NCBI GenBank assembly: GCA_001825155.1
Contig: MHVH01000005.1
Span: forward strand, 3,528 to 67,527
Reading direction: 5' to 3'
Origin: Candidatus Zambryskibacteria bacterium RIFCSPHIGHO2_01_FULL_46_25
GTDB lineage: Bacteria; Patescibacteriota; Minisyncoccia; Phycocordibacterales; Zambryskibacteraceae
Length of the DNA: 64,000 nucleotides
The translations under genes and the position numbers were made by a program. The notes under the pieces are model-generated. The model had not been told where the DNA came from, did not search any database, and saw only the letters and a list, made by a program, of their open reading frames with translations. Shown here piece by piece: positions 12,220 to 42,673 of this stretch; positions within the stretch are counted from its first letter, which is position 1; every line of letters starts with the position of its first letter.

Positions 12220-13327
12220 AAAGGTTTACGTCGGACTCTCCGGCGGGGTTGACTCTGCTGTCTCAGCAGCTTTGCTTAAGGAGCAAGGTTTCGATGTGAC
12301 CGGCGTTTTTATTAAGGCGTGGCAGCCAGAATGGATGGCTTGCATTTGGCGTGAGGAGCGCCGGGACGCCATGAGAGTTGCTCTCGCGCTTGATATTCCA
12401 TTTCTTTTTTTAGATTGCGAGCGTGAGTACAAGCAGGCGGTAGTGGATAAGATGATTGCCGAGTACAAAGCGGGCCGCACACCGAATCCGGACGTGCTCT
12501 GCAATCGGGAAATCAAGTTCAGCGTCTTTTGGGAAAAAGCTCGCGAACTCGGCGCGGACTATATTGCAACCGGGCATTATGCGAGAAATCCCTCCCTGCC
12601 CCTCCCTTTGTCAAGGGAGGGGAATAAAACTGATACCCCCTTGATAAAGAGGGCTGGGGGATTGTGTGAAGGAGTCGACAAAGAAAAAGATCAAAGTTAT
12701 TTTCTCTGGATTCTGACCGAAAAGGACTTGTCCCACGTCATTTTTCCGGTGGGAGATTTGGAGAAGAGGGAAGTGCGAGAACTCGCGCAGAAATTCAAAT
12801 TACCCGTGGCGGAGAAGAAGGATAGCCAGGGTATATGCTTCATGGGTGATGTTTCCATGGAGGAATTTCTCTCCCACTATGTTTCCGCGAAGCCCGGCAA
12901 AGTTATGAACGCCGATGGAGAAGTGATAGGCAGGCACGAAGGTCTTGTCTACTACACTATCGGCGAACGGCGCGGCTTCGAAGTGACAAAAAAGAGCGCC
13001 GCGAGCGGGCCGTTCTATATTGTGGCGAAGGACCCGGACACGAATACTCTTGTCGTATCTGACAAAGAAGAAGAGATTCTGGAATTTTCTCCGACCAAAA
13101 TACTTTTGAAAAATGTTAATTGGATTAATGAGCCAGAGAATTCGGAAATTTCCGGCAGAGTCCGCTATAGGGGAGAGAAATTGCCTCTAAGGCTGTCGGT
13201 TGTGGGTCGTCGGTTGTCTGTTGAATTCAAGAATCCCGTTCCCGGCCTCTCTCTCGGTCAGTCGCTGGTCTTCTACGACGGCGAGAATTGCCTCGGCGGC
13301 GGCATCATGGACAAAGTTTTGGAATAA
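12188..13327 (+). CDS. mnmA: tRNA-specific 2-thiouridylase
   Basis: GLSGGVDS, TPNPDVLCN, ATGHYAR, KDQSYFL and DSQGICF. The exact start is uncertain. Confidence 0.95.
   Translation: MLPRSKNISSKKVYVGLSGGVDSAVSAALLKEQGFDVTGVFIKAWQPEWMACIWREERRDAMRVALALDIPFLFLDCEREYKQAVVDKMIAEYKAGRTPNPDVLCNREIKFSVFWEKARELGADYIATGHYARNPSLPLPLSREGNKTDTPLIKRAGGLCEGVDKEKDQSYFLWILTEKDLSHVIFPVGDLEKREVRELAQKFKLPVAEKKDSQGICFMGDVSMEEFLSHYVSAKPGKVMNADGEVIGRHEGLVYYTIGERRGFEVTKKSAASGPFYIVAKDPDTNTLVVSDKEEEILEFSPTKILLKNVNWINEPENSEISGRVRYRGEKLPLRLSVVGRRLSVEFKNPVPGLSLGQSLVFYDGENCLGGGIMDKVLE
12587..12663. repeat. 77-bp MITE-like element translated in frame within mnmA
   Basis: Reads AATCCCTCCCTGCCCCTCCCTTTGTCAAGGGAGGGG...CCCCCTTGATAAAGAGGGCTGGGGGATT. 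Both ends match the inverted repeats flanking the DUF559 gene at 42242-42673. Confidence 0.8.
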
Positions 13328-13364
13328 TAATTATAGACAGCCCAAAATACATACTGAAGTGCAC

Positions 13365-13412
13365 AAAATCCCATATACGTTATAATTATGCGGTCGCACA
13401 ATAGTAGCGTAT
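13365..13412. repeat. Left direct repeat containing a 36-bp dyad site (13376-13411)
   Basis: About 42/48 identical to 13992-14038. The core is TACGTTA-N7-GCGGTCGC-N7-TAGCGTA, which overlaps a TATAAT and the ATG of the next gene. Confidence 0.85.
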
Positions 13413-13977
13413 GGGTAAATTAGAAGAAAAAAGCGGAAAAAGATCCAAAAGAAAGCATTTGCAATACGCCATATTTCAAACTGTTGCCGCTGTCGGGGTT
13501 TTAAGCGCGGCTGTCATGGCCCCGAACGTACTAATTGCCATGGATAAGCTCGGCTCGATTCCAAACAGAAGACAGAAAGAATATATTAGTTCATCTGCCA
13601 GTAAATTAGTCAAGCGAGGACTGCTTCACTTCGATGGCAAAAGATATCAAATGACCTCAATAGGGGAGAGTCTATTCCGGCGTTGGCAATTTGCAGATTT
13701 CCAGATCCAAAAACCTAAGAGATGGGATAAAAAGTGGCGGGTTATGATTTTTGATATCCCGGAGAAGAAAAGAAAGATCAGAAATGATCTAACCACGTTA
13801 TTTCGCGCGGCCGGCATATACCGTCTCCAAAACAGCGTTTGGGTATATCCGTATGAATGCGAGGATATCATTACTTTGCTCAAAACCGATTTCGGCATCG
13901 GCAAGTATCTTCTATATATGATTGTCGATGAGCTTGAAAATGATAAATATTTGCGTCAGCACTTCGGTCTTATCTAG
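13411..13977 (+). CDS. HTH + Cas2-like (PaaX central domain) protein, stand-alone
   Basis: A winged-helix-like segment (SASKLVKRGLL..YQMTSIG) is followed by WDKKWRVMIFDIPE..R..LQNSVW, the PaaX-central/Cas2-like signature. No cas1 or array is nearby. Confidence 0.75.
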   Translation: MGKLEEKSGKRSKRKHLQYAIFQTVAAVGVLSAAVMAPNVLIAMDKLGSIPNRRQKEYISSSASKLVKRGLLHFDGKRYQMTSIGESLFRRWQFADFQIQKPKRWDKKWRVMIFDIPEKKRKIRNDLTTLFRAAGIYRLQNSVWVYPYECEDIITLLKTDFGIGKYLLYMIVDELENDKYLRQHFGLI

Positions 13978-13991
13978 CTCAATTTAATTAA

Positions 13992-14038
13992 AAAATCCCT
14001 ATACGTTAAAGTCATGCGGTCGCACAAAAGTAACGTAT
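13992..14038. repeat. Right direct repeat containing a 36-bp dyad site (14002-14037)
   Basis: The core is TACGTTA-AAGTCAT-GCGGTCGC-ACAAAAG-TAACGTA. Confidence 0.85.
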
Positions 14039-14095
14039 CTACACAATTGGTGATGATTTAAAAACGATATCTTTTCTATCTGCTATAATATTTCC

Positions 14096-14938
14096 ATGCC
14101 GGAAACAGCGGACACGATAACTATAATCAAGGCTTCGGGGCAAAGAGAGGCTTTCGACCCGGAGAAACTGCGCTTCTCGCTTTTAAACTCCGGCGCGTCG
14201 CAGGAGGAGGCAGAAGAAGTGTTGAAGCATCTAGAGCCGGAGCTCAAGAACGGTATGTCTACGCATGATATTTACCATCATGCGTTCTCCATTCTCACCA
14301 AGATGAGCCGCCCGGTCGCCCGAAGTTATTCGTTGCGCCGCGCCGTCATGGATCTTGGCCCGTCTGGCTTTCCTTTCGAGGATTTCGTTGCCGAGATTTT
14401 GCGGGCTCAAGGTTTCCAGTGCATTACCCGCCAGACAGTTATAGGTGGCTGTGTGCCTCATGAGGTGGATGTCGTGGCTTACAACAACAAGAAACTTATT
14501 ATGGTTGAGGCCAAGTTCCACAACGAACTCGGCACGAAGTCCGATCTCAAGGTGGTGCTCTACGTCAAGGCGCGCTTCGATGACATCAAAGACAATGTAT
14601 ATGACTACGGCGGCAATGATAGAAAAGTTACAGACAGCTGGCTTGTGACCAATACCAAATTTTCCTCGACGGCGATCCACTATGCCGAGTGCAAGAATAT
14701 GACGCTTATCGGCTGGAATTATCCGGAGAAGAATAATCTCCAAGATATGATTGAGAACGAAGGTCTGCATCCCGTCACTTGTCTTACCACGCTTTCGAAC
14801 GATGAGAAAAAACAGCTTCTAGCTGGAGGCGTCGTGCTTTGCTCGAGTATCAAGGAGAGGCCACAGGTGCTTAAGGATCTTCTTGGCTCCGCCTTCGATG
14901 CTGATTCAGTACTTAATGAAATTAACGAACTAAAATAA
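14096..14938 (+). CDS. ATP-cone domain + Mrr-like PD-(D/E)xK restriction endonuclease domain protein
   Basis: IIKASGQREAFDPEKL (ATP cone), followed by GFPFEDFVAEI, EVDVVA, VEAKFH and LVTNTKFS. Confidence 0.8.
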   Translation: MPETADTITIIKASGQREAFDPEKLRFSLLNSGASQEEAEEVLKHLEPELKNGMSTHDIYHHAFSILTKMSRPVARSYSLRRAVMDLGPSGFPFEDFVAEILRAQGFQCITRQTVIGGCVPHEVDVVAYNNKKLIMVEAKFHNELGTKSDLKVVLYVKARFDDIKDNVYDYGGNDRKVTDSWLVTNTKFSSTAIHYAECKNMTLIGWNYPEKNNLQDMIENEGLHPVTCLTTLSNDEKKQLLAGGVVLCSSIKERPQVLKDLLGSAFDADSVLNEINELK

Positions 14939-14957
14939 TTCGACTAACTCACTATAA

Positions 14958-15407
14958 ATGATAAATCTTTTAAATATTTCCCCCGCTTACGAACCATTGG
15001 CCTACCTTGTGCTCGCGCTTGTGCTAGGTTCGCTTCTGGGCATGGAACGCACACTTGCTCACAAGACCGCCGGCGTTCGCACTTATGGGCTGGTTTCCAT
15101 GGGTTCGGCGCTCTTCATCCTAATTGCCAAGTACGTCATACCGACAGTAGAGGCTTATAACTACGACCCTATGCGCATAGCGGCCGGAGTTGTCATGGGC
15201 ATCGGTTTTCTCTGCGGCGGGGTAATCATCTTTAAGGACTCCCAGCTCTCCGGACTTACCACGGCGGCTGGACTCTGGGTGGCCGCGGGTATTGGCATGG
15301 CAGTCGGATATGGGCTAGTCATGCTCGCTGTCTTCGCTACCGCGGCAACGCTTGTCGTCTTTACGTTGTTCTGGTTTATCGAGCATAAAATAATCTCGAG
15401 AACTTAA
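14958..15407 (+). CDS. MgtC/SapB family membrane protein
   Basis: GMERT..AGVRTY, DPMRIAAGVVMGIGFL and GLTTAAGLW. Confidence 0.9.
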   Translation: MINLLNISPAYEPLAYLVLALVLGSLLGMERTLAHKTAGVRTYGLVSMGSALFILIAKYVIPTVEAYNYDPMRIAAGVVMGIGFLCGGVIIFKDSQLSGLTTAAGLWVAAGIGMAVGYGLVMLAVFATAATLVVFTLFWFIEHKIISRT

Positions 15408-15988
15408 TGGAAGAGAGGGAAGCCGAGCTCAAGAAGATTAAGGAAGATGTGTTAAATTTGACCGCCTCTCCGCTCTATGCGTATCGTGTAGAAAATAATT
15501 ACTTTCCGGTAATTGGAGAAGGCAATCACACGGCGAAAATTATGTTCATAGGCGAAGCGCCGGGGCAGAATGAGGCCAAGACTGGCAGACCTTTCTGCGG
15601 CAGGGCTGGAAAAGTGCTGGATACGCTTCTACAGAGTATCGGCATAGACAGGAAAGATGTTTACGTCACCAATATAGTTAAGGATCGACCGCCGGAGAAC
15701 CGCGACCCCTTGCCGGATGAAATCGAACTCTACGCGCCGTTTCTCGACCGGCAGATTGCCGCCATCAAGCCGGCGGTTATCGCCACTCTCGGTCGTTTCT
15801 CCATGCAATATGTCATGAGTCGATACGGGCTTGAGTTCGAGTTTGATAGTATTTCAAAAATTCACGGGCAAGTTTTTACTGCGGACAAATTCAAGGTCAT
15901 TCCTCTCTACCACCCCGCCGCTGCCATTTATAATCAGCACCTACTCGATACCCTGAAGGAAGATTTCAAAAAACTTGCAGATTTGTAG
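15407..15988 (+). CDS. Uracil-DNA glycosylase, family 4 type
   Basis: FIGEAPG..E..GRPF, TNIVKDRPPENRDP and YHPAA. Confidence 0.9.
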   Translation: MEEREAELKKIKEDVLNLTASPLYAYRVENNYFPVIGEGNHTAKIMFIGEAPGQNEAKTGRPFCGRAGKVLDTLLQSIGIDRKDVYVTNIVKDRPPENRDPLPDEIELYAPFLDRQIAAIKPAVIATLGRFSMQYVMSRYGLEFEFDSISKIHGQVFTADKFKVIPLYHPAAAIYNQHLLDTLKEDFKKLADL

Positions 15989-16037
15989 GGGATGTGGGAT
16001 AATAGGGAATAGATTGCTCACACTGATTGGAGTTGAT

Positions 16038-16274
16038 ATGAGTTGCTCTCATCCGATGGCGTCGCTCCACGTGATTTTGTTCGGCTTCGAGAACAGGTAC
16101 TGTTCTCGTTGCAAAAACATCATCAACGCACACGGCGAAGTGGTTCCGGCGCCGCCGGCGCCGGTTCCGAGCTTCGTCGAGAGTTGCGAGACGATCGTCG
16201 ACATGGCGGAGTTGCCGATCAAGCTCTTCCGCCTCGGTCGGTCTCTCCTGAGAGGTCGGCGTTTCGCGAGATAA
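16038..16274 (+). CDS. Small orphan protein with a CxxC motif
   Basis: GGAG ribosome-binding site, MSCSH...YCSRCK, and a strong hairpin directly after the stop. Confidence 0.5.
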   Translation: MSCSHPMASLHVILFGFENRYCSRCKNIINAHGEVVPAPPAPVPSFVESCETIVDMAELPIKLFRLGRSLLRGRRFAR

Positions 16275-16286
16275 TGATCTCGTTCG

Positions 16287-16316
16287 AAAGGCCGGGCGTG
16301 TTCGCCCGGCCTTTTC
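16287..16316 (+). terminator. Intrinsic terminator
   Basis: AAAGGCCGGGCG-TGTT-CGCCCGGCCTTTT. Confidence 0.75.
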
Positions 16317-16337
16317 TATTGTGTTATATTCATTGTA

Positions 16338-17933
16338 ATGGATTCAGCCCAAATCAGGCAGAAATTCTTGAAATTTTTTGAGGAAAGAGGGCATGCCGTG
16401 GTGCCCTCCTCCTCACTCGTGCCGGAGGGGGACTCGTCTGTTCTCTTCACCACCGCGGGCATGCAGCAGTTCAAGCCTTACTATCTCGGTTCGAAAGATC
16501 CTATAAAAGATTTCGGCTCCAAGAATACTGTTTCAATACAGAAGAGCATGCGTACTTCCGACATAGACGAAGTGGGGGATGAGAGCCATCTCACGTTTTT
16601 CGAAATGCTTGGCAACTTCTCCTTCGGCGGCTACTGGAAGAAGGAGGCTATAGAATACGCGCACGAATTCATAACGAAGGAAATGGGTTTGAAAATAGAT
16701 TACGTAACCGTTTTTGAAGGGGAGGAAGGTGTGCCGGAAGATACGGAGTCCGCGGAAATTTGGAAATCAATTGATTCGGAAATTGTTATCAAGAAAGCCG
16801 GCCGAAAAGATAACTTCTGGGGTCCGACAGGGGAAGAAGGTCCGTGTGGACCGACGACAGAAATATATGTAAATGGTCTCGAAATTTGGAATATTGTCTT
16901 CAACGAGTATTACCAAGATAAAGCTAAGAAGCTAACGAAGCTAGAGAAGCTAGGAATAGACACCGGCATGGGTCTCGAGCGCCTTGCCATGGTTTCGCAA
17001 AATGTTTCAACTCTTTTTGAAACGGATCTTTTTGCGAATATAATTTCGCGGTTGCCCGACGAAGTGCCCATAAGAATCAAGAGGATTGTCGCGGATCACA
17101 CTCGCGCTATCGAAGCCATGCTGGGAGAAAATCTCCAACCGTCGAATAAGGACCAGGGTTATGTATTGCGCAGACTGATAAGGCGAGTGCTTATGTATGA
17201 AAATAAATATGTATTTAAATACGTAATTAATTCCGAAGTTTTCGATTCCGAAAGGAAGAAATTCAATGAGACCTTGGGATCTGGCTTAAAGCAGTTCGAA
17301 AGAGGTGTTGACCCGTTCATTCTTTTTACCACCTATGGCTTTCCAATCGAGTTGACCGAAGAGATTGCAAAAGAGAAGGGAGTCGCGGTTGATAGGAAAA
17401 AATTCGATGAGGATTTCAAACAACACCAGGAGATTTCCAAAGCGGGTATGGAGCAGAAATTCAAAGGCGGTTTGGGAGGGCACTCGGACATGGAGGTGAA
17501 GCTTCATACCGCCACGCACCTTTTGCATCAGGCGCTCCATGACGTCTTGGGTGACGAGGTGGGGCAGAAGGGCTCTAACATTACGCCCGAAAGATTGCGT
17601 TTTGACTTCTCTTTCCCCAGAAAGATGACTGAAGAAGAGAAAAAGAGGGTAGAAGAGATAGTAAATAAAAAAATCGCTGCCGCCCTTCCAGTGCAACACT
17701 CGGTGTTGCAGAAAGAGGAGGCGTTAAAGACCGGTGCGCGCCACTTCTTCGACCAGAAATATCCGGACGAAGTATCTATCTACTACATTGGCGAGTCGCT
17801 CGAAAGCGCGTACTCCAAGGAATTCTGTGGCGGGCCACATGTCGCGAATATAGGCGAGTTAGGGCATTTCAGAATTACGAACGAAGAATCGTCATCAGCC
17901 GGTGTTCGCCGGATAAAAGCGGTATTGGAATAG
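16338..17933 (+). CDS. alaS: Alanine--tRNA ligase, compact form lacking the C-Ala domain
   Basis: LFTTAGMQQFK, HLTFFEMLGNFS, IDTGMGLER, HTATHLL and EFCGGPHV. The protein ends at AGVRRIKAV. Confidence 0.95.
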   Translation: MDSAQIRQKFLKFFEERGHAVVPSSSLVPEGDSSVLFTTAGMQQFKPYYLGSKDPIKDFGSKNTVSIQKSMRTSDIDEVGDESHLTFFEMLGNFSFGGYWKKEAIEYAHEFITKEMGLKIDYVTVFEGEEGVPEDTESAEIWKSIDSEIVIKKAGRKDNFWGPTGEEGPCGPTTEIYVNGLEIWNIVFNEYYQDKAKKLTKLEKLGIDTGMGLERLAMVSQNVSTLFETDLFANIISRLPDEVPIRIKRIVADHTRAIEAMLGENLQPSNKDQGYVLRRLIRRVLMYENKYVFKYVINSEVFDSERKKFNETLGSGLKQFERGVDPFILFTTYGFPIELTEEIAKEKGVAVDRKKFDEDFKQHQEISKAGMEQKFKGGLGGHSDMEVKLHTATHLLHQALHDVLGDEVGQKGSNITPERLRFDFSFPRKMTEEEKKRVEEIVNKKIAAALPVQHSVLQKEEALKTGARHFFDQKYPDEVSIYYIGESLESAYSKEFCGGPHVANIGELGHFRITNEESSSAGVRRIKAVLE

Positions 17934-17980
17934 TTCGACTTCGCTCACTATAAATAATAAAATAAGGTATAATTACCAAT

Positions 17981-19285
17981 ATGCCGAAAAAAATTGAGGA
18001 TATAATCGTTTCCGACAGGAGAAGGAGCATTCGGGATATTCCTATTCCAGAAAGCAGGCGCAAGCTTCCTGCCAAAGCGCCGCGCATGGATGCGATAGAA
18101 GACACTTCATCTCTTCCTCCCGTACGCACGCCCATTCCTCGCCATAAGAAAGGTTTCCGCAGGAAAATATGGACTGCCGGTGCCGTTGCAGTTGTTATCC
18201 TGTTGTTCGCCATTCTCTCGCTTATGAATGGCGCGACATTGAGTTATGTGCCGAAATCGGCCGCTCTCGCGTTTGATAACGATGCCTACACCGCTCACAA
18301 GTCCGGCGCGAATGGCCTCTTCTATAGTGTGGTCAAGCTCTCTCGCGATAAAAGTATGAATGCTCCCGCTGGAGCTGAGCAGAATGTGAGCCGGAAGGCT
18401 TCCGGAGTAATAGTAGTCTACAACGATAGCGCCGAGTCCCAGCGCCTGGTTGAGAACACGCGTTTCGAATCTCCGTCCGGCAAGATTTATAGGATAAGCA
18501 AAGCAATAACCACGCCGGCAAGGAGAGCCGTAAGCGGCGTTACCCAACCCGGTTCCGTGGAGGCGACTGTCTATGCCGATGTGGCGGGTGAAGCGTATAA
18601 TTCCGCGCCGACGGATTTTACCGTTCCAGGACTTAAAGGTACTTCGCGCTATAGCACTATTTATGCTCGCTCGAAAACTCCTCTTGCCGGAGGCTTTGTC
18701 GGCATGGAAAAGGTAGTCAAGGCGGAGGACCTTAGCCGGACCAAGACGGAACTGGAAACCGCCTTAAGAGAAGAACTCTACCGCGAGGCGGAAGCGGAGG
18801 TGCCGGAGGACTTCATCCTTTTCCGAACTCTTTCAACATTTGATTTCGAAGATTTGCCCCAGGCTCCAGGTAGTGGCGGTAGCGCGGTTGTGAGTATGAG
18901 AGGCCACCTCTATGGCGTCATGTTCAAGAAGAGCGATTTCGCCGGTTTCCTCGCAGAGAAAAAACTCGGCACGGCTCCTGCTGAAATTATAGAAATTCCT
19001 GATTATTCCGCCCTTGAAATCGCCTTTGCCTCAGTACCTCCGGCGGATCTCCTGGCTTCAAACGATGTGAGTTTCAAAATTAAGGGTAATGCTCAGGCGG
19101 TTTGGGTAACAGACGAAGTTTCTCTCCGCGCCGATTTGGCTGGTCACCACAAGAGGGATGTGCCCGGCGTTCTCAACAATTATCCGACCATCGCTTCCGC
19201 GAGTGTTACCGTGAGACCGTTCTGGAAGTCCTCTGTTCCCGCCGAAGCGGAGAAAATCAAGATAACTAAACTCTCTTCCGAGTAG
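17981..19285 (+). CDS. Hypothetical single-TM protein with a large extracytoplasmic beta-rich region
   Basis: 434-aa ORF with one TM segment and KASGVIVVYN, LVENTRF, GEAYN and FTVPG. Confidence 0.65.
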   Translation: MPKKIEDIIVSDRRRSIRDIPIPESRRKLPAKAPRMDAIEDTSSLPPVRTPIPRHKKGFRRKIWTAGAVAVVILLFAILSLMNGATLSYVPKSAALAFDNDAYTAHKSGANGLFYSVVKLSRDKSMNAPAGAEQNVSRKASGVIVVYNDSAESQRLVENTRFESPSGKIYRISKAITTPARRAVSGVTQPGSVEATVYADVAGEAYNSAPTDFTVPGLKGTSRYSTIYARSKTPLAGGFVGMEKVVKAEDLSRTKTELETALREELYREAEAEVPEDFILFRTLSTFDFEDLPQAPGSGGSAVVSMRGHLYGVMFKKSDFAGFLAEKKLGTAPAEIIEIPDYSALEIAFASVPPADLLASNDVSFKIKGNAQAVWVTDEVSLRADLAGHHKRDVPGVLNNYPTIASASVTVRPFWKSSVPAEAEKIKITKLSSE

Positions 19286-19286
19286 T

Positions 19287-19517
19287 ATGGCAAAAAGCGT
19301 CAATCCTATAGAGAAAACAGGTGTTGTTACGGAATCGCTTCCAAATATCATGTTCAAGGTTAAGCTCGATGATCCGCCAGTTGGCGGAGGTGAAGAAATA
19401 TTGACCTACCTTTCCGGCAAGATGAGACTCCACCGCATTAGGGTACTTGTGGGGGACAAAGTTATTATGGAGATGGAGCCCTATGGCGGCAAAGCCCGCA
19501 TAACCAAGCGTTTATAA
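19287..19517 (+). CDS. infA: Translation initiation factor IF-1
   Basis: GVVTESLPN..F.VKL and LSGKMR..IRVLVGDKV. Confidence 0.95.
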   Translation: MAKSVNPIEKTGVVTESLPNIMFKVKLDDPPVGGGEEILTYLSGKMRLHRIRVLVGDKVIMEMEPYGGKARITKRL

Positions 19518-19565
19518 GAAAAGTCTTGCCAAGAAATCAGGCTTAGGTTACAATGCATTCTTGTC

Positions 19566-19682
19566 ATGAAAGTAAAGGCGGCGGTAAGAAAAATGTGCGC
19601 CAAATGCCAGATAGTCCGCAGGAAGGGCTATGTTTATGTTGTCTGCAAGGCCAATCCCCGTCATAAGCAAAGACAAGGTTAA
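19566..19682 (+). CDS. rpmJ: 50S ribosomal protein L36 (not in the ORF track)
   Basis: Translates as [38 protein letters not shown]. Confidence 0.95.
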
Positions 19683-20065
19683 TGAGAATACTCGGTATCA
19701 CCATTCCAGAAGAAAAGCGTCTTGAAATTGGCTTAACAATCCTTTACGGGGTTGGCCGTTCGCGCGCGCGTAGCATTCTCGACCAAGCCAAGATTCCTTA
19801 CGGCACCAAGTCCAAAGAGGCTACCGTCGAGCAGGAAAACAAGATTCGTTCTGTCATTGAGACCCTTATGCTTGAGGGAGACCTCAAGCGTGAAGTAACC
19901 AGCAACGTCAAGCGTCTCAAAGATATTAAGGCTTACCGGGGTATTCGTCACCAGCGAGGCTTGCCGACTAGGGGCCAGCGCACCAAGTCAAATTCTCGCA
20001 CCACGCGACCTTATCGAGGCAGGAAGACCATGGGCACAGGCAGGAAGATAGCGGAGAAGAAATAA
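19682..20065 (+). CDS. rpsM: 30S ribosomal protein S13
   Basis: YRGIRHQRGLPTRGQRTKSNSRT. Confidence 0.95.
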   Translation: MRILGITIPEEKRLEIGLTILYGVGRSRARSILDQAKIPYGTKSKEATVEQENKIRSVIETLMLEGDLKREVTSNVKRLKDIKAYRGIRHQRGLPTRGQRTKSNSRTTRPYRGRKTMGTGRKIAEKK

Positions 20066-20069
20066 AAAT

Positions 20070-20519
20070 ATGGGAAAGCAGAAAATCGTAACAATCAAAG
20101 ATACGGAGGTGAAAGTGGCGGATGCCGCTGTTGAGGCTGCTCCTGCTCAGCCGGTCAAGTCGTCCAAGAGGCGGGTCGATTCTGGCATTCTATGCGTTGA
20201 ATCTACTTACAACAACACCAAGCTTGTGCTGACCGATAATAAAGGAAACACTCTCGCCTGGTCTTCGAGTGGGAACCTTGGTTTCAAGGGAGCGAAGAAA
20301 GGCACTCCTTTTGCCGCCGCCAAGGTTGGAGAGGCGCTTGCCGTTAAGGCCGGGGATATGGGGGTAAAGGAAGTAAGGGTGGTAGTTAAAGGGGTCGGTT
20401 CCGGACGAGAGTCGGCTATTCGCGGATTTATTTCCAAAGGTATTAATCTTGTCGCCATCCGGGACATGACCCCGGTGCCTCATAATGGGCCGAAACCGCC
20501 TAAGCCGAGAAGGACATAA
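20070..20519 (+). CDS. rpsK: 30S ribosomal protein S11
   Basis: STYNNT, KKGTPFAA and DMTPVPHNG. Confidence 0.95.
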   Translation: MGKQKIVTIKDTEVKVADAAVEAAPAQPVKSSKRRVDSGILCVESTYNNTKLVLTDNKGNTLAWSSSGNLGFKGAKKGTPFAAAKVGEALAVKAGDMGVKEVRVVVKGVGSGRESAIRGFISKGINLVAIRDMTPVPHNGPKPPKPRRT

Positions 20520-20520
20520 C

Positions 20521-21126: not shown

Positions 21127-21160
21127 TGTTATAATTATTACCTAATTTTTTCATAATATT

Positions 21161-22126: not shown

Positions 22127-22127
22127 A

Positions 22128-22475: not shown

Positions 22476-22476
22476 C

Positions 22477-23212: not shown

Positions 23213-23214
23213 TC

Positions 23215-23237: not shown

Positions 23238-23318
23238 TGTGTGAATTTTTGCAAAACGAAACCCCGTACCAGAGCCGAAGCTTAGTACGGGGCGTGGGAT
23301 AGGTGTCGGCGGCGGGTT

Positions 23319-32447: not shown

Positions 32448-32474
32448 AAATTATAAATTGAAAATTTTACCCCT

Positions 32475-34319: not shown

Positions 34320-34324
34320 TCCCC

Positions 34325-35377
34325 ATGGACATCTTAAAAATTATTAGTCCGACGGTTATGGCATTCTTTATCGGCATTTTCATCACGCCGTTCTTCACTA
34401 AGTATTTCTACAAATACAAAATGTGGAAGAAGTCTCCTCGCACCGAAGCGGGGGACATTACTTCCGACCACTTCAAGAAAATTCACAATACCGACTTGGA
34501 AATTTCAACTCCGCGCGTCGGTGGCATTATCATCTGGGCATCCGTATTTATCACAGTCGCGGTTATTTACATCCTCTCGATTGTTTTCCCATATGACGCG
34601 ATAGGGGAGCTGTCCTTCTTCAGCCGCTCGCAGACCGTGGTGCCTCTGGGAGCCTTCTTCCTCGCGGCACTCATCGGCCTCTTGGACGACTTACTGCAAA
34701 TATTCGGCCAGGGGAGTTATGCCAAAGATGCCTTGGTTTATCGCAAGGTAAAAATTGTTTTCGTCACGCTCATCGGCCTTGCTATCGCTACCTGGTTTTA
34801 CTTCAAGCTTGATTTCACTTCCATCCACATACCATTTGATGGGCCGTGGGAGCTCGGAATCTGGTTTATACCGTTTTTCGCTCTGGTAATGCTCGCCACC
34901 TTCTCCACTTCGGTCATAGACGGCCTCGACGGCCTGGCCGGGGGGGTGATGGCCTCTTGCTTCACCGCTTTTGCCGCCATCGCCTTCCTCGGAAGCCAGT
35001 ACGACATCTCGGCGCTCTCTGGGGCCATCGCCGGCGGCATATTGGCCTTCCTCTGGTTCAATGTGCCGCCGGCGAGATTCTACATGGGCGAGACCGGCAT
35101 GCTCGCGCTTACTGTGGCGCTCTCGGTTATCGCCTTTCTCACCGATTCTGTTCTCCTCTTGCCGGTAATCGCCTTACCGCTGGTGCTTACCACTCTCTCG
35201 GTTATTATCCAGATTGGTGTTTACAAAGTCTTCAATCATCGTCGGGTTTTCCTCGTCGCTCCGCTTCATCATCATTTCCAAGCTCTTGGTTGGCCGCGCG
35301 AGAAAGTGGTTATGCGCTACTGGATTGTTTCCGTTGTCTGCGCCATTACCGGAGTAATACTCTATCTTGTCAGCTAA
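34325..35377 (+). CDS. mraY: Phospho-N-acetylmuramoyl-pentapeptide transferase
   Basis: TPRVGG, GLLDD, DGLDGL, FYMGETG and APLHHHF. Confidence 0.93.
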   Translation: MDILKIISPTVMAFFIGIFITPFFTKYFYKYKMWKKSPRTEAGDITSDHFKKIHNTDLEISTPRVGGIIIWASVFITVAVIYILSIVFPYDAIGELSFFSRSQTVVPLGAFFLAALIGLLDDLLQIFGQGSYAKDALVYRKVKIVFVTLIGLAIATWFYFKLDFTSIHIPFDGPWELGIWFIPFFALVMLATFSTSVIDGLDGLAGGVMASCFTAFAAIAFLGSQYDISALSGAIAGGILAFLWFNVPPARFYMGETGMLALTVALSVIAFLTDSVLLLPVIALPLVLTTLSVIIQIGVYKVFNHRRVFLVAPLHHHFQALGWPREKVVMRYWIVSVVCAITGVILYLVS

Positions 35378-36461
35378 AATCGCTCAGCTTAAAGAATGGT
35401 ATGAAGAGCACGAAAGAAGGCTGGCAACCTTCTCGCTCCTGTTCGGCTTCGTATTCGACTCACTCACTCTTACGCGCATTGATGCCTTGCAAGACAATCT
35501 CTGGCTTTTCGGCAACTTGGTGGTAATAGGTGTCTGCATAATCCTTCTTAACCGGCAGGAAAATGATGGCATACAAGACAAAGAAGTTTCGAAGCACTTC
35601 TGGCTGTATAACCTGCTCCAGTTCGGCTTCGGAAACATACTCGGCGGATTCTTTGTCCTCTACTTCAGAAGTGGCACGCTTGCCGTATCTTGGCCGTTTC
35701 TTCTCATCTTACTTGTCGCCATGGTGGCAAACGAGCTTTTCCAGAAGCGCTACGCTCGACTCGTTCTGCAAATCTCGTTTCTCTATCTCACTATTTACGC
35801 CTTCCTAATCTTTATTGTGCCTATAGCTCTTCACAGGATTGGGGCATGGATTTTCCTCGCGAGCGGGCTTGTAAGTCTCCTTGCCGTATGGCTCTTCCTC
35901 ATCGCTTTACATCAGTTCTCGAGAGAGAGGTTCAGGGAGAGCCGGGTCTCCATTGTCCGCTCGGTAGCCGCGATTTTCGCGGTTATGAACATTCTCTACT
36001 TCACCAATCTTATCCCGCCCATCCCACTCTCGCTCAAGGATGCCGGCATTTATCATAATGTGGAAAAATTACCGAGCGGCAGATACAGCGTGCTCGAAGA
36101 AGAGGAGAAGGGGATTATGAGTTTCTTCGACTTCCGCAAAGACATTCACCTGGTCTCCGGCAATACACTCTTTGCTTACAGCGCCATTTATTCTCCGTCC
36201 GACCTTGATACCCAGATTGTCCACGAATGGCAGCATTACGACGAGAAGCAGGGCGAGTGGCTTACAAGCACCACTATTCCACTCCGCCTCTCCGGCGGCA
36301 GGGTAGAGGGCTTCCGCACGTATTCGAGCAAATCGAGCCTTGCTCCAGGCCCATGGCGCGTAAACGTCTCGACTCCCAGGGGCCAACTATTGGGCCGCAT
36401 AAATTTCGAAATAGTTTCTGTCAATTCCTATCCGGCAATAAAAGCCGTTGTGAAGGATTAA
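35367..36461 (+). CDS. Multi-TM protein with a C-terminal DUF2914-like domain
   Basis: IPPIPLSLK and GGRVEGFRTYSSK..GPWRVNV. TTG start. Confidence 0.7.
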   Translation: MSAKIAQLKEWYEEHERRLATFSLLFGFVFDSLTLTRIDALQDNLWLFGNLVVIGVCIILLNRQENDGIQDKEVSKHFWLYNLLQFGFGNILGGFFVLYFRSGTLAVSWPFLLILLVAMVANELFQKRYARLVLQISFLYLTIYAFLIFIVPIALHRIGAWIFLASGLVSLLAVWLFLIALHQFSRERFRESRVSIVRSVAAIFAVMNILYFTNLIPPIPLSLKDAGIYHNVEKLPSGRYSVLEEEEKGIMSFFDFRKDIHLVSGNTLFAYSAIYSPSDLDTQIVHEWQHYDEKQGEWLTSTTIPLRLSGGRVEGFRTYSSKSSLAPGPWRVNVSTPRGQLLGRINFEIVSVNSYPAIKAVVKD

Positions 36462-36602
36462 CGGCTGACTCAAGGGTGGTTTTGTTATCCACAAGTTGAG
36501 AACATATTATCCCCACATGTCAAGTTGACATACTAACCACTAGGCGTAGGGTTTAAGACATTCTATATTTAGAAGTTTGTATTACACAATAAAATTAAAA
36601 AT

Positions 36603-38985
36603 ATGACAAAATTGCTGCGGGGGGGGGGCTTTACTAGGTAATTCATTCAAACTTCTACTTGTTTTCACAGTTGCCTTCGGCGGCTTTTTTGTTGCTAATT
36701 CGGCACAGGCGGCTACGATAAATGTCCCGGCTGAGCAGGCGACCATTCAAGCAGCAATTACTGCTGCGAATCCTGGCGACATAATTAATGTCGCGGCGGG
36801 GACATATCCCGAAAATGTTTCAATAAGTGGCAAGACAAATCTCACAATTCAGGGCGCTGGAATTTCAACCATCGTTGAACCAGCAAGCGGAATCGGTTTT
36901 GCAATCACGAATTCTAGCAACATAACAATCAAGAATCTCAAAATTCACACCGTCGGCACCGATGCACACGGCGTCTGGGTTGCTGGAACCCCTAGCGGTA
37001 GTGCGGTGACCGGTCTTACAGTGCAGGATGACACAATCGTTGTGGATGGCTACTCCAGCGGTATTTACGCTGGGTGGGTAGATACGACACCTCACTCGGG
37101 GTGGCTTATCGGTGGGTCAGGACACGGGAACACTATAGAAGTGAACTCTGGCGCAGGAGTTACAGGCGATGGAATGGATCTCTATGACGTATCTGACTCG
37201 GAAGTAAGTTACAACACGATTACGCTTACAAACCCGACTGATAGTACGCCCGTTATTTGGTCAAGTGAACTCTCCAATCTGAACAATCTAAAATTCGAGC
37301 ACAATACGATGAGCGGTTCTACCGGTAGCGAAGTATGGATTGGTACGGATTTCAGTAGCCAATCACCTGATACATCTATCTCGACCGTCTCCGTGTTGGG
37401 CAACACGTTCGGCAACTGGGGTGTGCGCGCGTTGAAACTCGAAGGATCTGTTACGGGGGTGTCCGTAAATGCCAACATCTTCCAGATGACTGCGGATACG
37501 ACTCAAGTAATCGGTGGTACCGCTGCGCCTAGTGCAACAGGGACGGGAAATACGTTTAATATTTCTCTCCCGGCAAAAATTCAAAAAGCGGTAGACGCGG
37601 CATTTGCCGGCGACACTATTAATGTTGCCGCAGGGACGTATGACGAACAGCTAACTGTAGATAAGGATGTAACGATCAGTGGCGTTTCCGGTGCGATTCT
37701 CCAGCCGACGGGAAACGATGATGCTTGGGACATCCAATTTGCCAGTGGCGGAAGCGGCGCGACCTTAGAGGGATTCACTCTCGACTTTAACGGTTCTGCT
37801 AATGATAGGGATGGAAGAGGTATAGGAATTAGCGATTCCGGCGGTCCGACAGTCACAAATGTCACGATTCAGAATAACGACATTACTATGGGTGTGGGTG
37901 TAGGTGCAGCGACGGGTGGACTGGAGGGCGTGGGTATTCAGACTGGCCTTAATGCCGATATAGGCGGTTTGCAAATACTGGATAACGACTTTCATGCCGG
38001 CAGTACTGTAATAACTGATGGCAATTCACAGGGTGAGGAAGGAATCTATGTAAATCCGAGCTCCGGTACCGGAGAGATAACCATATCCGGCAACACATTC
38101 GACGGAGAGTTGTTTACTGGCATCTCAATCGAGTCGGATAACGTCACAGTAAGCAACAATACCGTGACTCGTACGAGTATCGTCCAGAACACTAACGGCA
38201 TAAGAGTCAATGAATTCTACGGAAGTAAGACTTACAGCATAACCATAAGTGATAACGTTGTCAGCGGATTCGATAACGGCTTGCGTCTTGGTAGCGGAAG
38301 CGATGGGGGGTCGACATTAGCAGTAACCGTGGAGAATAACACGATTACTGACAACACCCGTGGTATTTGGGTCAGAAACGATGCAGTAGTAACCGCTTCA
38401 GGCAATACATTCTCAGGTAATACATCGAATCCCGAAATTCTTGCCGGAAGTGACGGAACTGTCAACGGAGTAAATGTCTGGGGAAATCCAGTCGTCACAA
38501 TCAACGGTGATGTAAATATGGGGGTTTGGGATAGAAACGGTTTCAGTGATCCTGGCGCTTCTGCTACAGACAGCTCTGGCGCTTCAGTTGATGTGGTTGT
38601 TACTGGCTCAGTAAACATATCCATAGCAGGCACATACACCTTGACTTATACGGCTACTGATATGTTTGGGAATACGGCATCTGCTGATCGCACAGTTACT
38701 GTAAGAATCGCAAGTGGCGGAGGCGGGGGGTCTTCGAACGGCGGAGGCGGCAGGAGTTCCGGAGCAGCTTCGCCTAGAGCTCTTCAGGCGGTGAATGCGG
38801 CCGGAGTAACTCTGCCCGTTCCCGCGGCCGGAGTCATAGGACAGGTTCTCGGTGCTTCTACTGTTAGTCCGGAGATACAGGCCCAAATTGATTCCATCAA
38901 ACTAACTCTAAGAGGTCTCATCTCACAACTCATTGCTCTGCTTCAACAGCAGCTTGCAGCCGCTATCGCGTCTCAGGGAAATTAG
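36603..38985 (+). CDS. Large secreted beta-helix/Ig-like surface protein, frameshifted at the G10 tract (36619-36628)
   Basis: The long frame is open from 36607 to 38985 but has no start codon before 37006. Deleting one G joins the ATG at 36603 to a signal peptide ending in AQA. It has two TIQAAI..GD.INVAAGTY modules, parallel beta-helix repeats and a DPGASATD..GTYTLTYTATD Ig-like domain. Confidence 0.8.
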
Positions 38986-39006
38986 CAATTAATTCTGGTG
39001 CTTGGC

Positions 39007-39040
39007 CCAAAAAACCGCCTTGACTTAGGCGGTTTTTTGG
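39007..39040 (+). terminator. Bidirectional-type intrinsic terminator
   Basis: CCAAAAAACCGCCT-TGACTT-AGGCGGTTTTTTGG. Confidence 0.8.
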
Positions 39041-39055
39041 TTAATAGTTAATCTT

Positions 39056-39958
39056 ATGATTTCTTGGCTCAAGAGGCACTTCATACCGCACGAGGGGAAT
39101 GGTCACAGACCTCATATTCTGCATAGGAAGAATGCCGCCCAACTCGTGGGAGTGGTGCTACTTTTCGAACTTGCGCTATTTATCTTGCCAGGGCTCAACT
39201 TCGCCGGCTTCGTCAATAGTCTCAATCTTGGCGCGGTCTTGCCCGGAGTGCTCTCGACGCTTACCAATGAGAAGAGGCTGGCGGAGAACATGCCACAGCT
39301 TCTCGAGAATCCTTTGCTTATGCAATCGGCCCAGCTCAAGGCGGAAGACATGGCGACAAAAAGTTATTTCGCTCACACTTCTCCGGAAGGGAAGACTCCG
39401 TGGTATTGGCTCAAGCAAGTTGGTTACTCGTATGCCTATGCCGGAGAGAACTTGGCGGTGAACTTCGTTGATTCCGAAGATGTGACGGAAGCTTGGATGA
39501 ATTCTCCAACTCATCGCGCCAATATCGTAAGCGGTGCTTACACTGAGATAGGGACAGGCATCGCGACGGGCGTGTACAAGGGCAATAATGCCGTTTTTGT
39601 CGCCCAGGTTTACGGCCGTCCGGCATTGTTTAACCCCTCGCTTCTACCGGCTGCGGCGCAGAAGTCTGCCGGTTTGAACCGAGTGGTGCAAGAAACGACA
39701 AGGTTTTTCCAAGAAGCGGCCGCATCGCCCAGGCGCACGACAGACGCCGTGCTCTTTAGTGTCATGGGCATCATTACTCTCGCGCTCCTTTTCAATATCT
39801 TTATCAAAATCAGGCACCAACATCCGGATCTTATATTAAACGGCGCGGTGGTCATGGTGGTAATTCTCGCTCTCCACATCGGCAACGGATATGTTTCAAA
39901 AGATCATGGCTTGGAAACGTCTTTTATCGCCTACAACGCCTCAGAAGTAGAAGAATAG
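39056..39958 (+). CDS. CAP (SCP) domain membrane protein
   Basis: KAEDM..YFAHTSP, AGENLA and WMNSPTHRANI. Confidence 0.9.
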   Translation: MISWLKRHFIPHEGNGHRPHILHRKNAAQLVGVVLLFELALFILPGLNFAGFVNSLNLGAVLPGVLSTLTNEKRLAENMPQLLENPLLMQSAQLKAEDMATKSYFAHTSPEGKTPWYWLKQVGYSYAYAGENLAVNFVDSEDVTEAWMNSPTHRANIVSGAYTEIGTGIATGVYKGNNAVFVAQVYGRPALFNPSLLPAAAQKSAGLNRVVQETTRFFQEAAASPRRTTDAVLFSVMGIITLALLFNIFIKIRHQHPDLILNGAVVMVVILALHIGNGYVSKDHGLETSFIAYNASEVEE

Positions 39959-39977
39959 TGTTATAATTTCGCACAAG

Positions 39978-41078
39978 ATGCGAAGCAGGATAAAAGTCGA
40001 TAAGCCTTTTTTGGTCATCACGATTATACTCATCGTGGCGGGCTTTTTTATTTTCTCCTCCGCTTCTTTGGGCCTCTTGGCGAAGGAGAGTTCAAACTAT
40101 TCGAGTGTCGCGTTCTCGCAAACCGTCCTCGGCCTTTTCCTCGGCACGATTGCCATGATTCTGGCGGCCAGGCTCGATTACAAAATATGGAAAAAATGGG
40201 CTTTCTATCTCCTCATCCTGGCGGTAATTTTAAATATCATTGTTCTCATTCCTGACATCGGTTTCGAGCATGGCGGCGCGCGAAGATGGCTACGGGTAGG
40301 AGAGCTTTCTCTCCAGCCGGCCGAGGTACTCAAGTTCGCCTTCATCATCTACTTTGCCGCCTGGGCGGCGGGAGTTAAGGAAAAGATATCTACCTTCTCC
40401 ATGGGCCTCTTGCCCCTCATGACTCTCCTTGGCCTCTGTGGCATTCTCCTTCTTCTCCAGCCGGACACGGACAACTACATGGTCATCGTCGCGACCGGCA
40501 TGGGCATGTTCATAGCGGCGGGCGGTCGATGGCGGCACGTGTTAATACTGGGACTTATAGGACTTATAGGACTTATAGGACTTGCGGTAGCAAGGCCGTA
40601 TGTCATGCAGAGGATTACGACTTTTCTCAATCCGACATTGGACTCTCTTGGCTCCGGTTATCAGATACAGCAAAGCCTTATCGCTATCGGTTCCGGAGGT
40701 CTCTTCGGCACCGGTTTTGGTCAGAGTATTCAGAAATTTACCTATCTCCCGGAGCCGGTGGGCGATTCTATCTTTGCCGTGGCCGGAGAAGAGTTCGGCT
40801 TCGTGGGTTCGGTTTTGCTTATCGCGATATTCACCCTTTTTGCCGTGCGAGGGCTCAAAATCGCCGGCAATATGGAAGATAGGTTCGGTAGACTGGTGGT
40901 TGCTGGAATTGTTATAATGATTATCTCCCAGGCATTCGTCAATATAGGCGCCATGCTAGGAGTAATACCGCTTTCAGGCATTACCTTGCCCTTCGTCTCG
41001 CATGGCGGCACCTCTCTTTTCTTGAGCCTGTTTGAGATTGGCGTAATCCTTTCAGTATCCAAATCGCAAAAATCATGA
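39978..41078 (+). CDS. ftsW: SEDS peptidoglycan glycosyltransferase FtsW
   Basis: GARRW, QPAE, GYQIQQSLIAIGSGG and GITLPFVSHGGTS. It precedes murG. Confidence 0.92.
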   Translation: MRSRIKVDKPFLVITIILIVAGFFIFSSASLGLLAKESSNYSSVAFSQTVLGLFLGTIAMILAARLDYKIWKKWAFYLLILAVILNIIVLIPDIGFEHGGARRWLRVGELSLQPAEVLKFAFIIYFAAWAAGVKEKISTFSMGLLPLMTLLGLCGILLLLQPDTDNYMVIVATGMGMFIAAGGRWRHVLILGLIGLIGLIGLAVARPYVMQRITTFLNPTLDSLGSGYQIQQSLIAIGSGGLFGTGFGQSIQKFTYLPEPVGDSIFAVAGEEFGFVGSVLLIAIFTLFAVRGLKIAGNMEDRFGRLVVAGIVIMIISQAFVNIGAMLGVIPLSGITLPFVSHGGTSLFLSLFEIGVILSVSKSQKS

Positions 41079-42220
41079 GAATTTTATTTACCGGCGGAGG
41101 CACAGGAGGACACTTCTACCCGATTATCTCCATTGCCGATGAGCTCAAAGCTCTCGCCAAGGACAAGAGGCTTCTTGAGCTCGAGCTCTTCTACATGTCG
41201 CCTACGCCATATGATGCAGGAACGCTCTTCGAGCACGGCCTCGAATACAGGAAGAATAGCGCCGGCAAATTGCGCCGCTCGAAATCCGGCTTGAACCTTT
41301 TCCGCAATTTCTTCGACTTATTTAAAACAGGGTGGGGGATTATCACGTCGGTTGTGCAGGTCTTCAATCTCTATCCAGACGTGGTCTTTGGCAAGGGCGG
41401 GTACGCGAGTTTCCCGGCGCTTCTGGCGGCAAGAATCTTGCGCATACCGGTCGTCATCCACGAATCCGACAGCGTGCCGGGCAAGGTTAACTTATGGGCG
41501 GGCAAATTCGCCCAAAAGGTCGCCGTTTCCTACAAAGAAGCTGGGCAGTTTTTTCCCCCGGAAAAAACTGCCTATACCGGCCAGCCTGTGCGCCGAGAAA
41601 TCGCTTCGCCGCTTCTCGAGGGAGCGAGAGAATTTCTGGGCCTCAAGGAGGATGTGCCGGTCGTCCTCATCCTTGGTGGCTCTCAAGGCTCGCAGAAAAT
41701 CAATGCCGCCGTTCTCGAAGCTTTGAAAGAACTTTTGGAGAAATACGCCGTCATCCATCAGACGGGAGGCAATAACTTCGCCGAGGTCAAAGCGACAGCC
41801 GAGGCGGTGCTCTACGGCTCAACGCACAAAGACCGCTACAAGCCATTCGATTATCTCAACACTCTGGCCATGCGCATGGCGGCCGGCCTCGCCACCATAG
41901 TGGTTTCCCGCGCCGGCTCCGCCATATTCGAAATTGCTTCGTGGGGCGCGCCATCGATTATCATCCCCATTAACGAGAAGGTGAGCCACGACCAGCACTC
42001 TAACGCCTTCGCCTATGCTCGCTCCGGTGCCTGTACCGTGGTGGAAGAAATTAATCTCTCTCCCAACATCCTCATATCCGAGATCGACAGGCTTATAGGA
42101 GACAAAATACTTACGGAAAACATGAAGGCGGCCGCTAAAGTATTCTACAAACCCGACGCCGCCAAGCTCGTGGCGGAAGAGATACTAAAGATAGCATTGG
42201 AGCATGAGATAGAGAAATAG
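41075..42220 (+). CDS. murG: Undecaprenyl-PP-MurNAc-pentapeptide GlcNAc transferase
   Basis: GGGTGGHFYP, GKGGYAS, GGSQGS and SRAG. Confidence 0.95.
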   Translation: MRILFTGGGTGGHFYPIISIADELKALAKDKRLLELELFYMSPTPYDAGTLFEHGLEYRKNSAGKLRRSKSGLNLFRNFFDLFKTGWGIITSVVQVFNLYPDVVFGKGGYASFPALLAARILRIPVVIHESDSVPGKVNLWAGKFAQKVAVSYKEAGQFFPPEKTAYTGQPVRREIASPLLEGAREFLGLKEDVPVVLILGGSQGSQKINAAVLEALKELLEKYAVIHQTGGNNFAEVKATAEAVLYGSTHKDRYKPFDYLNTLAMRMAAGLATIVVSRAGSAIFEIASWGAPSIIIPINEKVSHDQHSNAFAYARSGACTVVEEINLSPNILISEIDRLIGDKILTENMKAAAKVFYKPDAAKLVAEEILKIALEHEIEK

Positions 42221-42241
42221 ATAAATAAATCCTCCCCCATA

Positions 42242-42673
42242 AATCCCTCCAACCCCCCTTTATCAAGGGAGGTGAATCATGAAATACAATTTTATTCCAT
42301 ATGATAAAAATCTGGTACTCCGGGCCAGAGAATTAAGAAATAATCAAACGGAAGCAGAGAAATACTTTTGGACCAATGTTCTTAAAAGTAAAAAATTCAA
42401 GACTTTCATATTTTTGAGACAAAAACCGGTTGGAAATTTCATTGTCGATTTCTACTGCTCGCGTTTGTTACTCGGCATAGAAATTGACGGCCATATCCAT
42501 GACAAGAATAGGGATAAAGAAAGAGATAATATATTAAAAGAGAAATTCGGGATTACGGTCCTTAGGTATAGAAACGAAGATGTTATGGATAATCCTGAAA
42601 AAATTGTGAAAGACCTATTGCGACAAATGAAAGGTTGATCCCTCCCTTGATAAAGGGAGGGCAGGGAGGGATT
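42242..42673. mobile_element. Candidate DUF559-nuclease element with terminal inverted repeats of about 32 bp
   Basis: The left end is AATCCCTCCAACCCCCCTTTATCAAGGGAGG (42242-42272). The reverse complement of the right end is AATCCCTCCCTGCCCTCCCTTTATCAAGGGAGG (42641-42673). The interior is AT-rich. Confidence 0.65.
42279..42638 (+). CDS. DUF559 / Vsr-like endonuclease domain protein
   Basis: ARELRNNQTEAE..W, FLRQKP..FIVDFYC, IEIDG.IH, D.ERD and VLRY.N. Confidence 0.9.
   Translation: MKYNFIPYDKNLVLRARELRNNQTEAEKYFWTNVLKSKKFKTFIFLRQKPVGNFIVDFYCSRLLLGIEIDGHIHDKNRDKERDNILKEKFGITVLRYRNEDVMDNPEKIVKDLLRQMKG

Follow-up and report, generated by a model that had tools for sequence, protein, structure and literature searches.

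A putative DUF559 nuclease gene bracketed by inverted triplex-type arms, and gene-less copies of such arms, in a Zambryskibacteria genome

The stretch of 64,000 nucleotides analyzed here (the window) belongs to Candidatus Zambryskibacteria bacterium RIFCSPHIGHO2_01_FULL_46_25 and corresponds to C5:3528-67527 of its 582-kb, 96% complete genome (G000). Between murG and gltX it carries a cassette of 432 bp (42242-42673), made of one DUF559 gene bracketed by inverted arms, and a related gene-less segment is translated within mnmA. An initial annotation of the window had taken the two for an autonomous/non-autonomous pair of mobile elements and proposed to look at the flanks of other DUF559 genes. 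We found that such arms pair with the gene throughout the order as well as in E. coli and other phyla. Statements on published work refer to the passages covered of each cited source. The features at the locus are the following.

42242-42272 (31 bp), - strand: left arm, with a C/T stem, a GATA loop, a purine stem and a mirror tail as read on the - strand
42279-42638, + strand: DUF559 (YcjD-like, Vsr-fold) putative endonuclease of 119 aa (PF04480, E 1.6e-28)
42640-42673 (34 bp), + strand: right arm, a 9-bp hairpin plus mirror tail, immediately 3' of the DUF559 stop codon
42674-42683, + strand: GTGTTAAAAT 5' of gltX, host sequence outside the cassette and likely an extended -10 promoter
41075-42220, + strand: murG, the upstream host gene (GT28 N- and C-terminal domains; gene name by recognition)
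42690-43913, + strand: gltX, the downstream host gene (domain match)

The cassette gene is AT-rich, as had been noted, with 33% GC against 54% for murG and 45% for gltX. Its bounding arms agree in 28 of 33 aligned columns and end in AATCC and GGATT, so that terminal inverted repeats of the type seen in insertion sequences (IS) and miniature inverted-repeat transposable elements (MITEs) are indeed present. The left arm also supplies the Shine-Dalgarno sequence of the gene, a GGAGG on the + strand that ends 6 nt 5' of the ATG. The claim that each arm folds into a hairpin of its own held well for the right arm (z -3.6) and poorly for the left arm on the + strand (z -0.96, 34 of 200 shuffles folding equally well); on the - strand the left arm reached z -2.2. 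Arms acting as terminators, promoters or known RNAs were ruled out by scans in which no terminator or sigma-70 site was called in 42150-42750, GTGTTAAAAT gave no full sigma-70 site, and the sole Rfam match within the window was a tRNA. Just 5' of the left arm (42228-42238) lies part of an additional C-rich block. It may be the decayed remnant of a second tail and recurs in altered form in a metagenome contig that carries the cassette at the same locus (L187).

The arms have a further block outside the hairpin. BoxC/PIT/TM repeats have been described as class II intrastrand triplexes, composed of a C-rich stem, a purine stem and a second purine block, and the triplex was demonstrated in single-stranded oligonucleotides (PMC4666352). 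A purine-motif triplex requires that the outer block mirror the purine stem, T being allowed for A, while a second Watson-Crick hairpin would instead demand a direct copy of the stem block. A perfect mirror was present in 51 of 101 automatically picked arms, compared with 6.4 (maximum 14 in 500) after swapping of the tails, and this count is lowered by the arm picker, which at times chose hairpins in the wrong orientation. The direct copy fitted 4 of 100 asymmetric stems. When one arm was taken per distinct stem, 18.0 of 51 were mirrored versus 2.1 by swapping, and the perfect arms span 23 different stems. Among these perfect arms, all 21 linkers of at least 8 nt fold into a small hairpin of their own, a count for which no null was run. 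Against the class II layout of a pyrimidine stem, a purine stem and an antiparallel purine third block, the right arm of the cassette and the left arm of the mnmA segment were perfect and the left arm of the cassette matched at 7 of 8 positions. The strict TMECO consensus does not cover the arms of the window, whose stems end in TT where CC is required and contain more A/T. Taken as a whole, the mirror rule suggests that the arms are better read as triplex-type motifs of the BoxC/PIT/TM class than as transposon ends.

The association of arms and gene was assessed with 53 DUF559 genes. They were drawn from the genus, from a set of 251 genomes of the order and from a single-protein scan of genome contigs (5 loci only); partial matches, three Bacteroidota loci and one duplicate were left out. 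The gene is patchy, with a match in 26 of the 251 genomes and up to five matches in one of them. Hairpins lay at both sides of 35 of the 53 genes versus none of 516 control open reading frames (ORFs), and an inverted flank match scoring at least 30 was obtained for 44 of 53 versus 14 of 516. The downstream arm of the same gene was the best match to the upstream arm in 23 of the 53 cases and among the top three in 42, and arm types follow the protein tree. Within the genus, the three-block pattern occurred in 9 of the 11 genomes with a full-length gene (7 of 11 if cassette arms are ignored) as against 1 of the 26 that lack it. Free copies of a second arm family averaged 4.1 in 7 carriers and 0.37 in 30 other genomes. 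Beyond the order, a plasmid collection yielded 37 DUF559 records, and all six sampled (Deinococcota, Cyanobacteriota, Alphaproteobacteria) showed, by eye, such repeats on at least one side. The exact right-arm pattern was found at 1 metagenome locus and the arm pattern had 0 matches in viral contigs; a search for the DUF559 protein in 50,697 phages returned 2 records (protein matches only). A phage vector was set aside on these numbers.

Arms are also scattered through G000 away from any DUF559 gene. We counted 23 perfect three-block motifs, one of which looks spurious, versus 0 in each of 4 shuffled genomes, and a scan for hairpins with the C/T strand first gave 22 sites versus 0-3 in five shuffles. 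Many copies are read in frame, in mnmA, cysS, prfB, rpsP, rpoC, rseP, tsaD, tatD, polA and a TPR-type membrane gene (apart from mnmA and rseP, the genes were named by recognizing their translations). G000 has another DUF559 gene (C5:199111-199500), between rseP and proS, with arms of its own that belong to a different sequence family. Could the repeats belong instead to RAYT-like genes, i.e. to Y1 transposases of the kind associated with repetitive extragenic palindromes (REPs)? G000 contains five of these (C5:218899, C1:7306, C3:5845, C6:41899 and C4:43351), each with a palindrome of its own, and we rejected them as partners because all five palindromes are unlike the arms, which leaves DUF559 as the best candidate. 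One RAYT-associated palindrome directly adjoins a triplex-type doublet, at C7:5863-5941.

The gene-less segment in mnmA is laid out as follows.

12146-13327, + strand: mnmA (tRNA 2-thiouridylase), single match in the genome, frame intact
12587-12663, + strand: gene-less in-frame doublet in mnmA, with a long arm (12587-12622), a 13-bp spacer and a short inverted arm (12636-12663)

This miniature of 77 bp was confirmed, and so was the enlargement of the protein loop in which it sits, put at a normal length of about 9 aa by the initial annotation: the loop has 35 residues in G000, against 15 in 10 of the 28 relatives and 18-43 in the others. The loop motif was located in 29 of 30 loci and the doublet in none of the relatives; three of four further genomes gave loops of 31, 19 and 4 residues. 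This loop appears to be an insertion-tolerant hot spot, with unrelated palindromic inserts in other species (L006, L010, L013, L017, L144) and nearly complete deletion in G042.

The segment had been read as the two cassette ends joined by a short spacer. Its left arm bears this out, differing from the element end by one substitution and one indel as described (33 of 35 columns shared with the right arm of the cassette). The right arm does not: it agrees with the two cassette arms in 26 of 32 and 25 of 33 columns, and better (26 of 29) with the short arm of another in-frame doublet (C5:157806-157883). An origin by internal deletion of the cassette was likewise unsupported, the spacer having no match to the cassette interior. 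Judged by its arms and spacer, the miniature is a member of a family of doublets, comparable to REPINs (paired REPs), and not a simple deletion product of the cassette. A right end GGGATTGTGT, said to be common to both elements, was dropped as an element signature. The two ends are not homologous, the left arm in mnmA being the homologue of the right arm of the cassette, and the motif belongs to the host. The sequence GTGTTAAAAT is a host sequence since it also precedes gltX in the cassette-free genome G013, and a shorter TGTTAAAAT is found in G003 and G014.

Empty sites in relatives, which the initial annotation had proposed to look for, were found at both murG-gltX and mnmA. Out of 36 murG junctions in the genus, 4 hold a cassette, 22 are empty (abutting, overlapping or separated by up to ~45 bp), 9 contain other DNA and 1 coincides with an assembly gap; the metagenome contig L187 is a fifth carrier. 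The gap, of ~100 N, lies right after murG in G051 (L074), at the junction where the sister species carries the cassette. On a murG tree of 35 rows the carriers require 4 changes. On a quick gltX tree of 32 rows they require 3, within one branch of 10 rows that we regard as weakly supported (support 86), and these patterns are compatible both with repeated gain and with one gain followed by losses. Between DUF559 genes of carriers at this locus, the synonymous difference (pS) is 0.71-0.92 and the nonsynonymous difference (pN) 0.12-0.25, similar to murG and gltX, and synonymous sites are saturated against four carriers. The arms, compared with L187, are identical at 29 of 31 positions on the left and 33 of 34 on the right, i.e. 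3 of 65 positions differ. Because synonymous sites are saturated with a low pN and the arms are nearly identical to those of L187, the unit is, by these measures, old and under purifying selection on both gene and arms.

G000 contains no near-identical second copy of the cassette. Elsewhere, cassettes occupy more than 20 gene neighbourhoods (62 of 103 flank ORFs scanned) and can be translated within host proteins, in leuS (L091, L101), in tgt (L112) and in L099, giving open frames of 889, 881, 556 and 381 aa (L091, L101, L112 and L099, respectively). In one genome (G020), two different loci hold cassettes that share 89% identity, and the homology stops at the arm ends. This distribution indicates that whole cassettes do move over longer times. 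These two cassettes (L037, L045) are identical over about their first 190 bp and diverge thereafter, which suggests gene conversion between the copies. As for the gene-less inserts, the net gain is smaller than the insert itself in mnmA (60 of 77 bp), in prfB (24 of 32), in rpoC (21 of ~45) and in G003, where the same rpoC loop has an independent copy (18 of 32). No target duplication was seen at the inserts examined, where the relatives are distant enough for an old duplication to have eroded; since they are 65-86% identical in protein, clean junctions are not definable. Both ends of the rpoC element resemble the native codons that they replaced, which hints at microhomology or else reflects selection on the protein. 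The same rpoC loop contains three different in-frame repeats in three species (L218, L220, L221), two of them triplex-type and from different arm families.

The DUF559 protein is predicted to be a Vsr-fold nuclease that likely nicks DNA. Ten residues are invariant in 52 aligned sequences (R20, E27, W31, Q48, D57, F58, E68, D70, H74 and R82) and D79 is conserved in at least 90% of them. The structure model is confident (pLDDT 92, the predicted local-distance score), and its fold matches a Neisseria protein (3hrl, E 1.4e-5) and the catalytic domain of the homing endonuclease I-Bth0305I (E 7e-4, TM score 0.61), with E. coli Vsr ranking far lower. The protein thus combines the fold with the E...D...DGxxH...D residue set of a Vsr-like catalytic domain, a set described for the EDxHD enzyme I-Bth0305I (PMC3239194). 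DUF559 has been grouped with Vsr before, in a paper (PMC3424549) that names no repeats in the passages covered. The absence of a known transposase, remarked on in the initial annotation, was confirmed, since the cassette gene matches DUF559 and, weakly, a restriction-endonuclease domain, and no DDE, HUH, serine or DEDD enzyme.

A DUF559 gene accompanied by BoxC-type repeats is also present in E. coli, where ycjD, carried by K-12, adjoins fabI. A hairpin spans the start of ycjD, a degenerate arm spans its stop, and a full BoxC-type (TMECO) copy lies 168 bp past the stop. In K-12 (L188) the 5' hairpin is long and richer in A/T, covers the start codon and the ribosome-binding site, and takes the place of a typical left arm. 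Strict TMECO copies numbered 23 in K-12 and 29 in 55989, which both have ycjD, versus 1 in IHE3034 and 7 in SMS-3-5, both of which gave no DUF559 match. The gene was found in 3378 of 5426 E. coli genomes, at a median of one place and a maximum of two. In E. coli, BoxC/PIT/TM repeats have been recognized since the 1990s, with neither a function nor a spreading enzyme assigned to them, and the surroundings of TMECO sites are described as free of transposase or integrase remnants, no partner enzyme being named (PMC4666352). The words 'ycjD' and 'endonuclease' do not appear in the main text of that paper, the supplement of which may list ycjD among genes near TMECO sites. In the literature searched (titles and abstract starts; few subscription papers, and not the original BoxC/PIT reports), we found no link between DUF559 or ycjD and BoxC-type repeats.

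We consider it probable that the cassette, gene and both arms together, is an old REPtron-like unit whose predicted Vsr-fold nicking enzyme likely recognizes the folded, likely three-stranded arms and likely seeds gene-less copies such as the doublet in mnmA. We infer that the nuclease acts on the repeat. According to this model, an arm would fold into its hairpin when DNA becomes single-stranded (on the lagging strand, during transcription or in incoming transforming DNA), and the outer block would fold back as a purine-motif third strand. The DUF559 protein would nick at or beside the folded arm, and host repair would join the released arm or doublet to another site, where a few bases would be replaced rather than duplicated. 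In gene-dense genomes, mostly in-frame insertions in tolerant loops would survive. The whole cassette would be mobile only rarely, and the left hairpin, by masking the ribosome-binding site, may keep DUF559 expression low. As to the pair proposed initially, the coupling of gene and repeat holds within the order and beyond it, E. coli and other phyla included, whereas 'autonomous' was an overstatement, as no recent jump or target duplication was seen and the miniature is no simple deletion derivative of this cassette.

More tentatively, and with somewhat less than even confidence, DUF559/YcjD proteins might generally be structure-specific nucleases that read an intrastrand triplex and spread BoxC-type repeats and, rarely, their own cassette. 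They would then constitute another REP/RAYT-like system, of independent evolutionary origin and with a restriction-fold nickase at its core, that reaches from Patescibacteria to E. coli and steadily supplies essential proteins with new loops.

Several observations weigh against an enzyme that recognizes and spreads the arms. Holder et al. detected a stable triplex neither in duplex DNA nor when footprinting in vivo (PMC4666352), and 50 of the 101 automatically picked arms had no perfect mirror. At least one side was devoid of a detected hairpin in 18 of the 53 genes, and a Capnocytophaga locus (L082) showed no inverted flanks. Gene and repeat are at times uncoupled: free copies of a third arm family are present in G000, which has no matching gene; G003 and G042 have the gene and no match to the genus pattern; and G045 (78% complete) has matches to the pattern and no gene that we could find. 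Genomes and arms are kin rather than independent, so that p-values and other statistics overstate the association. The E. coli contrast covers four strains and, because the presence of ycjD alternates with that of eefRABCD between phylogroups (PMC12817139), may reflect few lineage events, perhaps one or two. Finally, the sole DUF559 protein with genetics, VsrA of Caulobacter, has been interpreted as a mismatch-repair enzyme (PMC12907096).

One rival explanation is that the window protein serves the host as a Vsr-type repair nuclease, or that it binds the arms merely to regulate its own expression, the repeats being spread by replication slippage or recombination through odd structures. VsrA causes DNA damage in Caulobacter cells lacking a cytosine methylase, and the five residues proposed as catalytic in VsrA are spaced almost as in the window protein (PMC12907096). 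Purifying selection on the gene as strong as on its housekeeping neighbours agrees with such a role, as does the reported tie between triplex motifs and local instability in E. coli (PMC4666352). Yet a C5 methylase (PF00145) was not found in G000 at its 96% completeness, nor among the scanned neighbours of cassettes, the gene is patchy and present at many loci, arm sequences change with the protein lineage, and free copies track the presence of the gene. We therefore regard a repair or self-regulatory role as an unlikely explanation of the repeats.

Another possibility was a free-standing homing cassette, the nuclease of which would cut empty alleles or pre-existing free repeats, homologous repair through flanks or arms then copying the cassette in. 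The closest characterized fold is that of a homing endonuclease, I-Bth0305I (PMC3239194), the four genomes with the cassette at murG are dispersed over the murG tree, and one junction, metG-tatD, holds cassettes of different protein branches. Unlike I-Bth0305I, however, the protein has no N-terminal DNA-binding domain within its 119 residues, which form a single domain encoded between two genes rather than in an intron or intein. No pair of carriers displays the low divergence expected of recent homing, the single branch in the gltX tree would allow one gain and later losses, and the origin of the gene-less copies would be left unexplained. Homing is, in our judgment, quite unlikely.

Least likely is a true autonomous transposon with terminal inverted repeats, in which DUF559 would excise and insert the whole cassette and the mnmA piece would be a MITE-like deletion derivative: the many neighbourhoods, the in-frame cassettes, the G020 pair and the empty murG junctions speak for it, but so old a cassette with no close second copy in G000, at most two ycjD places per genome in 3378 E. 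coli genomes, net gains below the insert with no target duplication seen, and an mnmA spacer foreign to the cassette speak against it, and a lone nuclease of 119 aa would seem to bring no evident joining activity.

We then compared the unit, read as a nuclease gene with the arms that it probably acts on, with known systems. REPtrons and TIRtrons, described together with intragenic REPs in PMC3733652, are among the closest. RAYT genes, which are single-copy and do not jump, duplicate REPINs (bioRxiv 10.1101/2021.07.10.451892). Shared traits are an old, conserved and mostly non-jumping gene with inverted hairpin flanks, gene-less doublets with a variable spacer, lineage-specific repeat families, and repeats that also occur free, singly and as doublets. 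The picture for a single-copy, vertically inherited and non-jumping gene is itself mixed here, the cassette being old and conserved at the murG locus and the gene single in E. coli, yet found at numerous loci across the order and dispersed over the murG tree. Differences are the enzyme, a Vsr-fold protein of PD-(D/E)XK type instead of an HUH/Y1 transposase; the arms, which bear a mirror tail and no GTAG or CGTC tag; the copies, which are often coding; and the occurrence of cassettes at many loci and on plasmid-collection records. Because the HUH enzyme and the GTAG/CGTC tag are missing, the unit is no REPtron, and the best reading is that it works like one in which both the enzyme and the structure recognized are different.

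The arms share with BoxC/PIT/TM repeats (Holder et al. 2015, PMC4666352) the three blocks, the occurrence as single copies and inverted pairs, and a patchy distribution among close relatives; they differ in missing the strict TMECO pattern and in being found, in many copies, in frame in genes. IS elements and MITEs have comparable inverted ends but come with known transposases, target duplications or recent near-identical copies, none of which was seen here. I-Bth0305I (PMC3239194) has the same fold and catalytic set and differs by its N-terminal domain and intron/intein context, in place of which the present unit has hairpin arms. VsrA (PMC12907096) likewise has a DUF559 domain with nearly equal residue spacing; as a difference from the very-short-patch repair setting, no cytosine methylase was found in G000. 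Rickettsia palindromic elements and intragenic REPs (as presented in PMC3733652) are also palindromes translated in frame in housekeeping proteins, with a different sequence design.

If the proposed link between enzyme and arms is true, it would give a function to the widespread domain of unknown function DUF559 and explain odd loops rich in P, G and L in essential proteins of bacteria with small genomes. The covariation of mirror and stem over divergent arm families is comparative evidence for selection on DNA triplex geometry in bacteria. Furthermore, ycjD in K-12 is a candidate enzyme for the spreading of BoxC repeats, which makes the question directly testable.

Two further observations concern in-frame repeats. 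The prfB loop contains, in L149, L152, L166 and L167, other short in-frame inserts, three of them with a similar proline/glycine-rich palindrome. The window itself contains one more copy, belonging to another arm family and readable as an arm from either side.

53883-53931, strand not assigned: two-faced copy of another arm family, in frame in cysS, with one hairpin and a mirror tail on each strand

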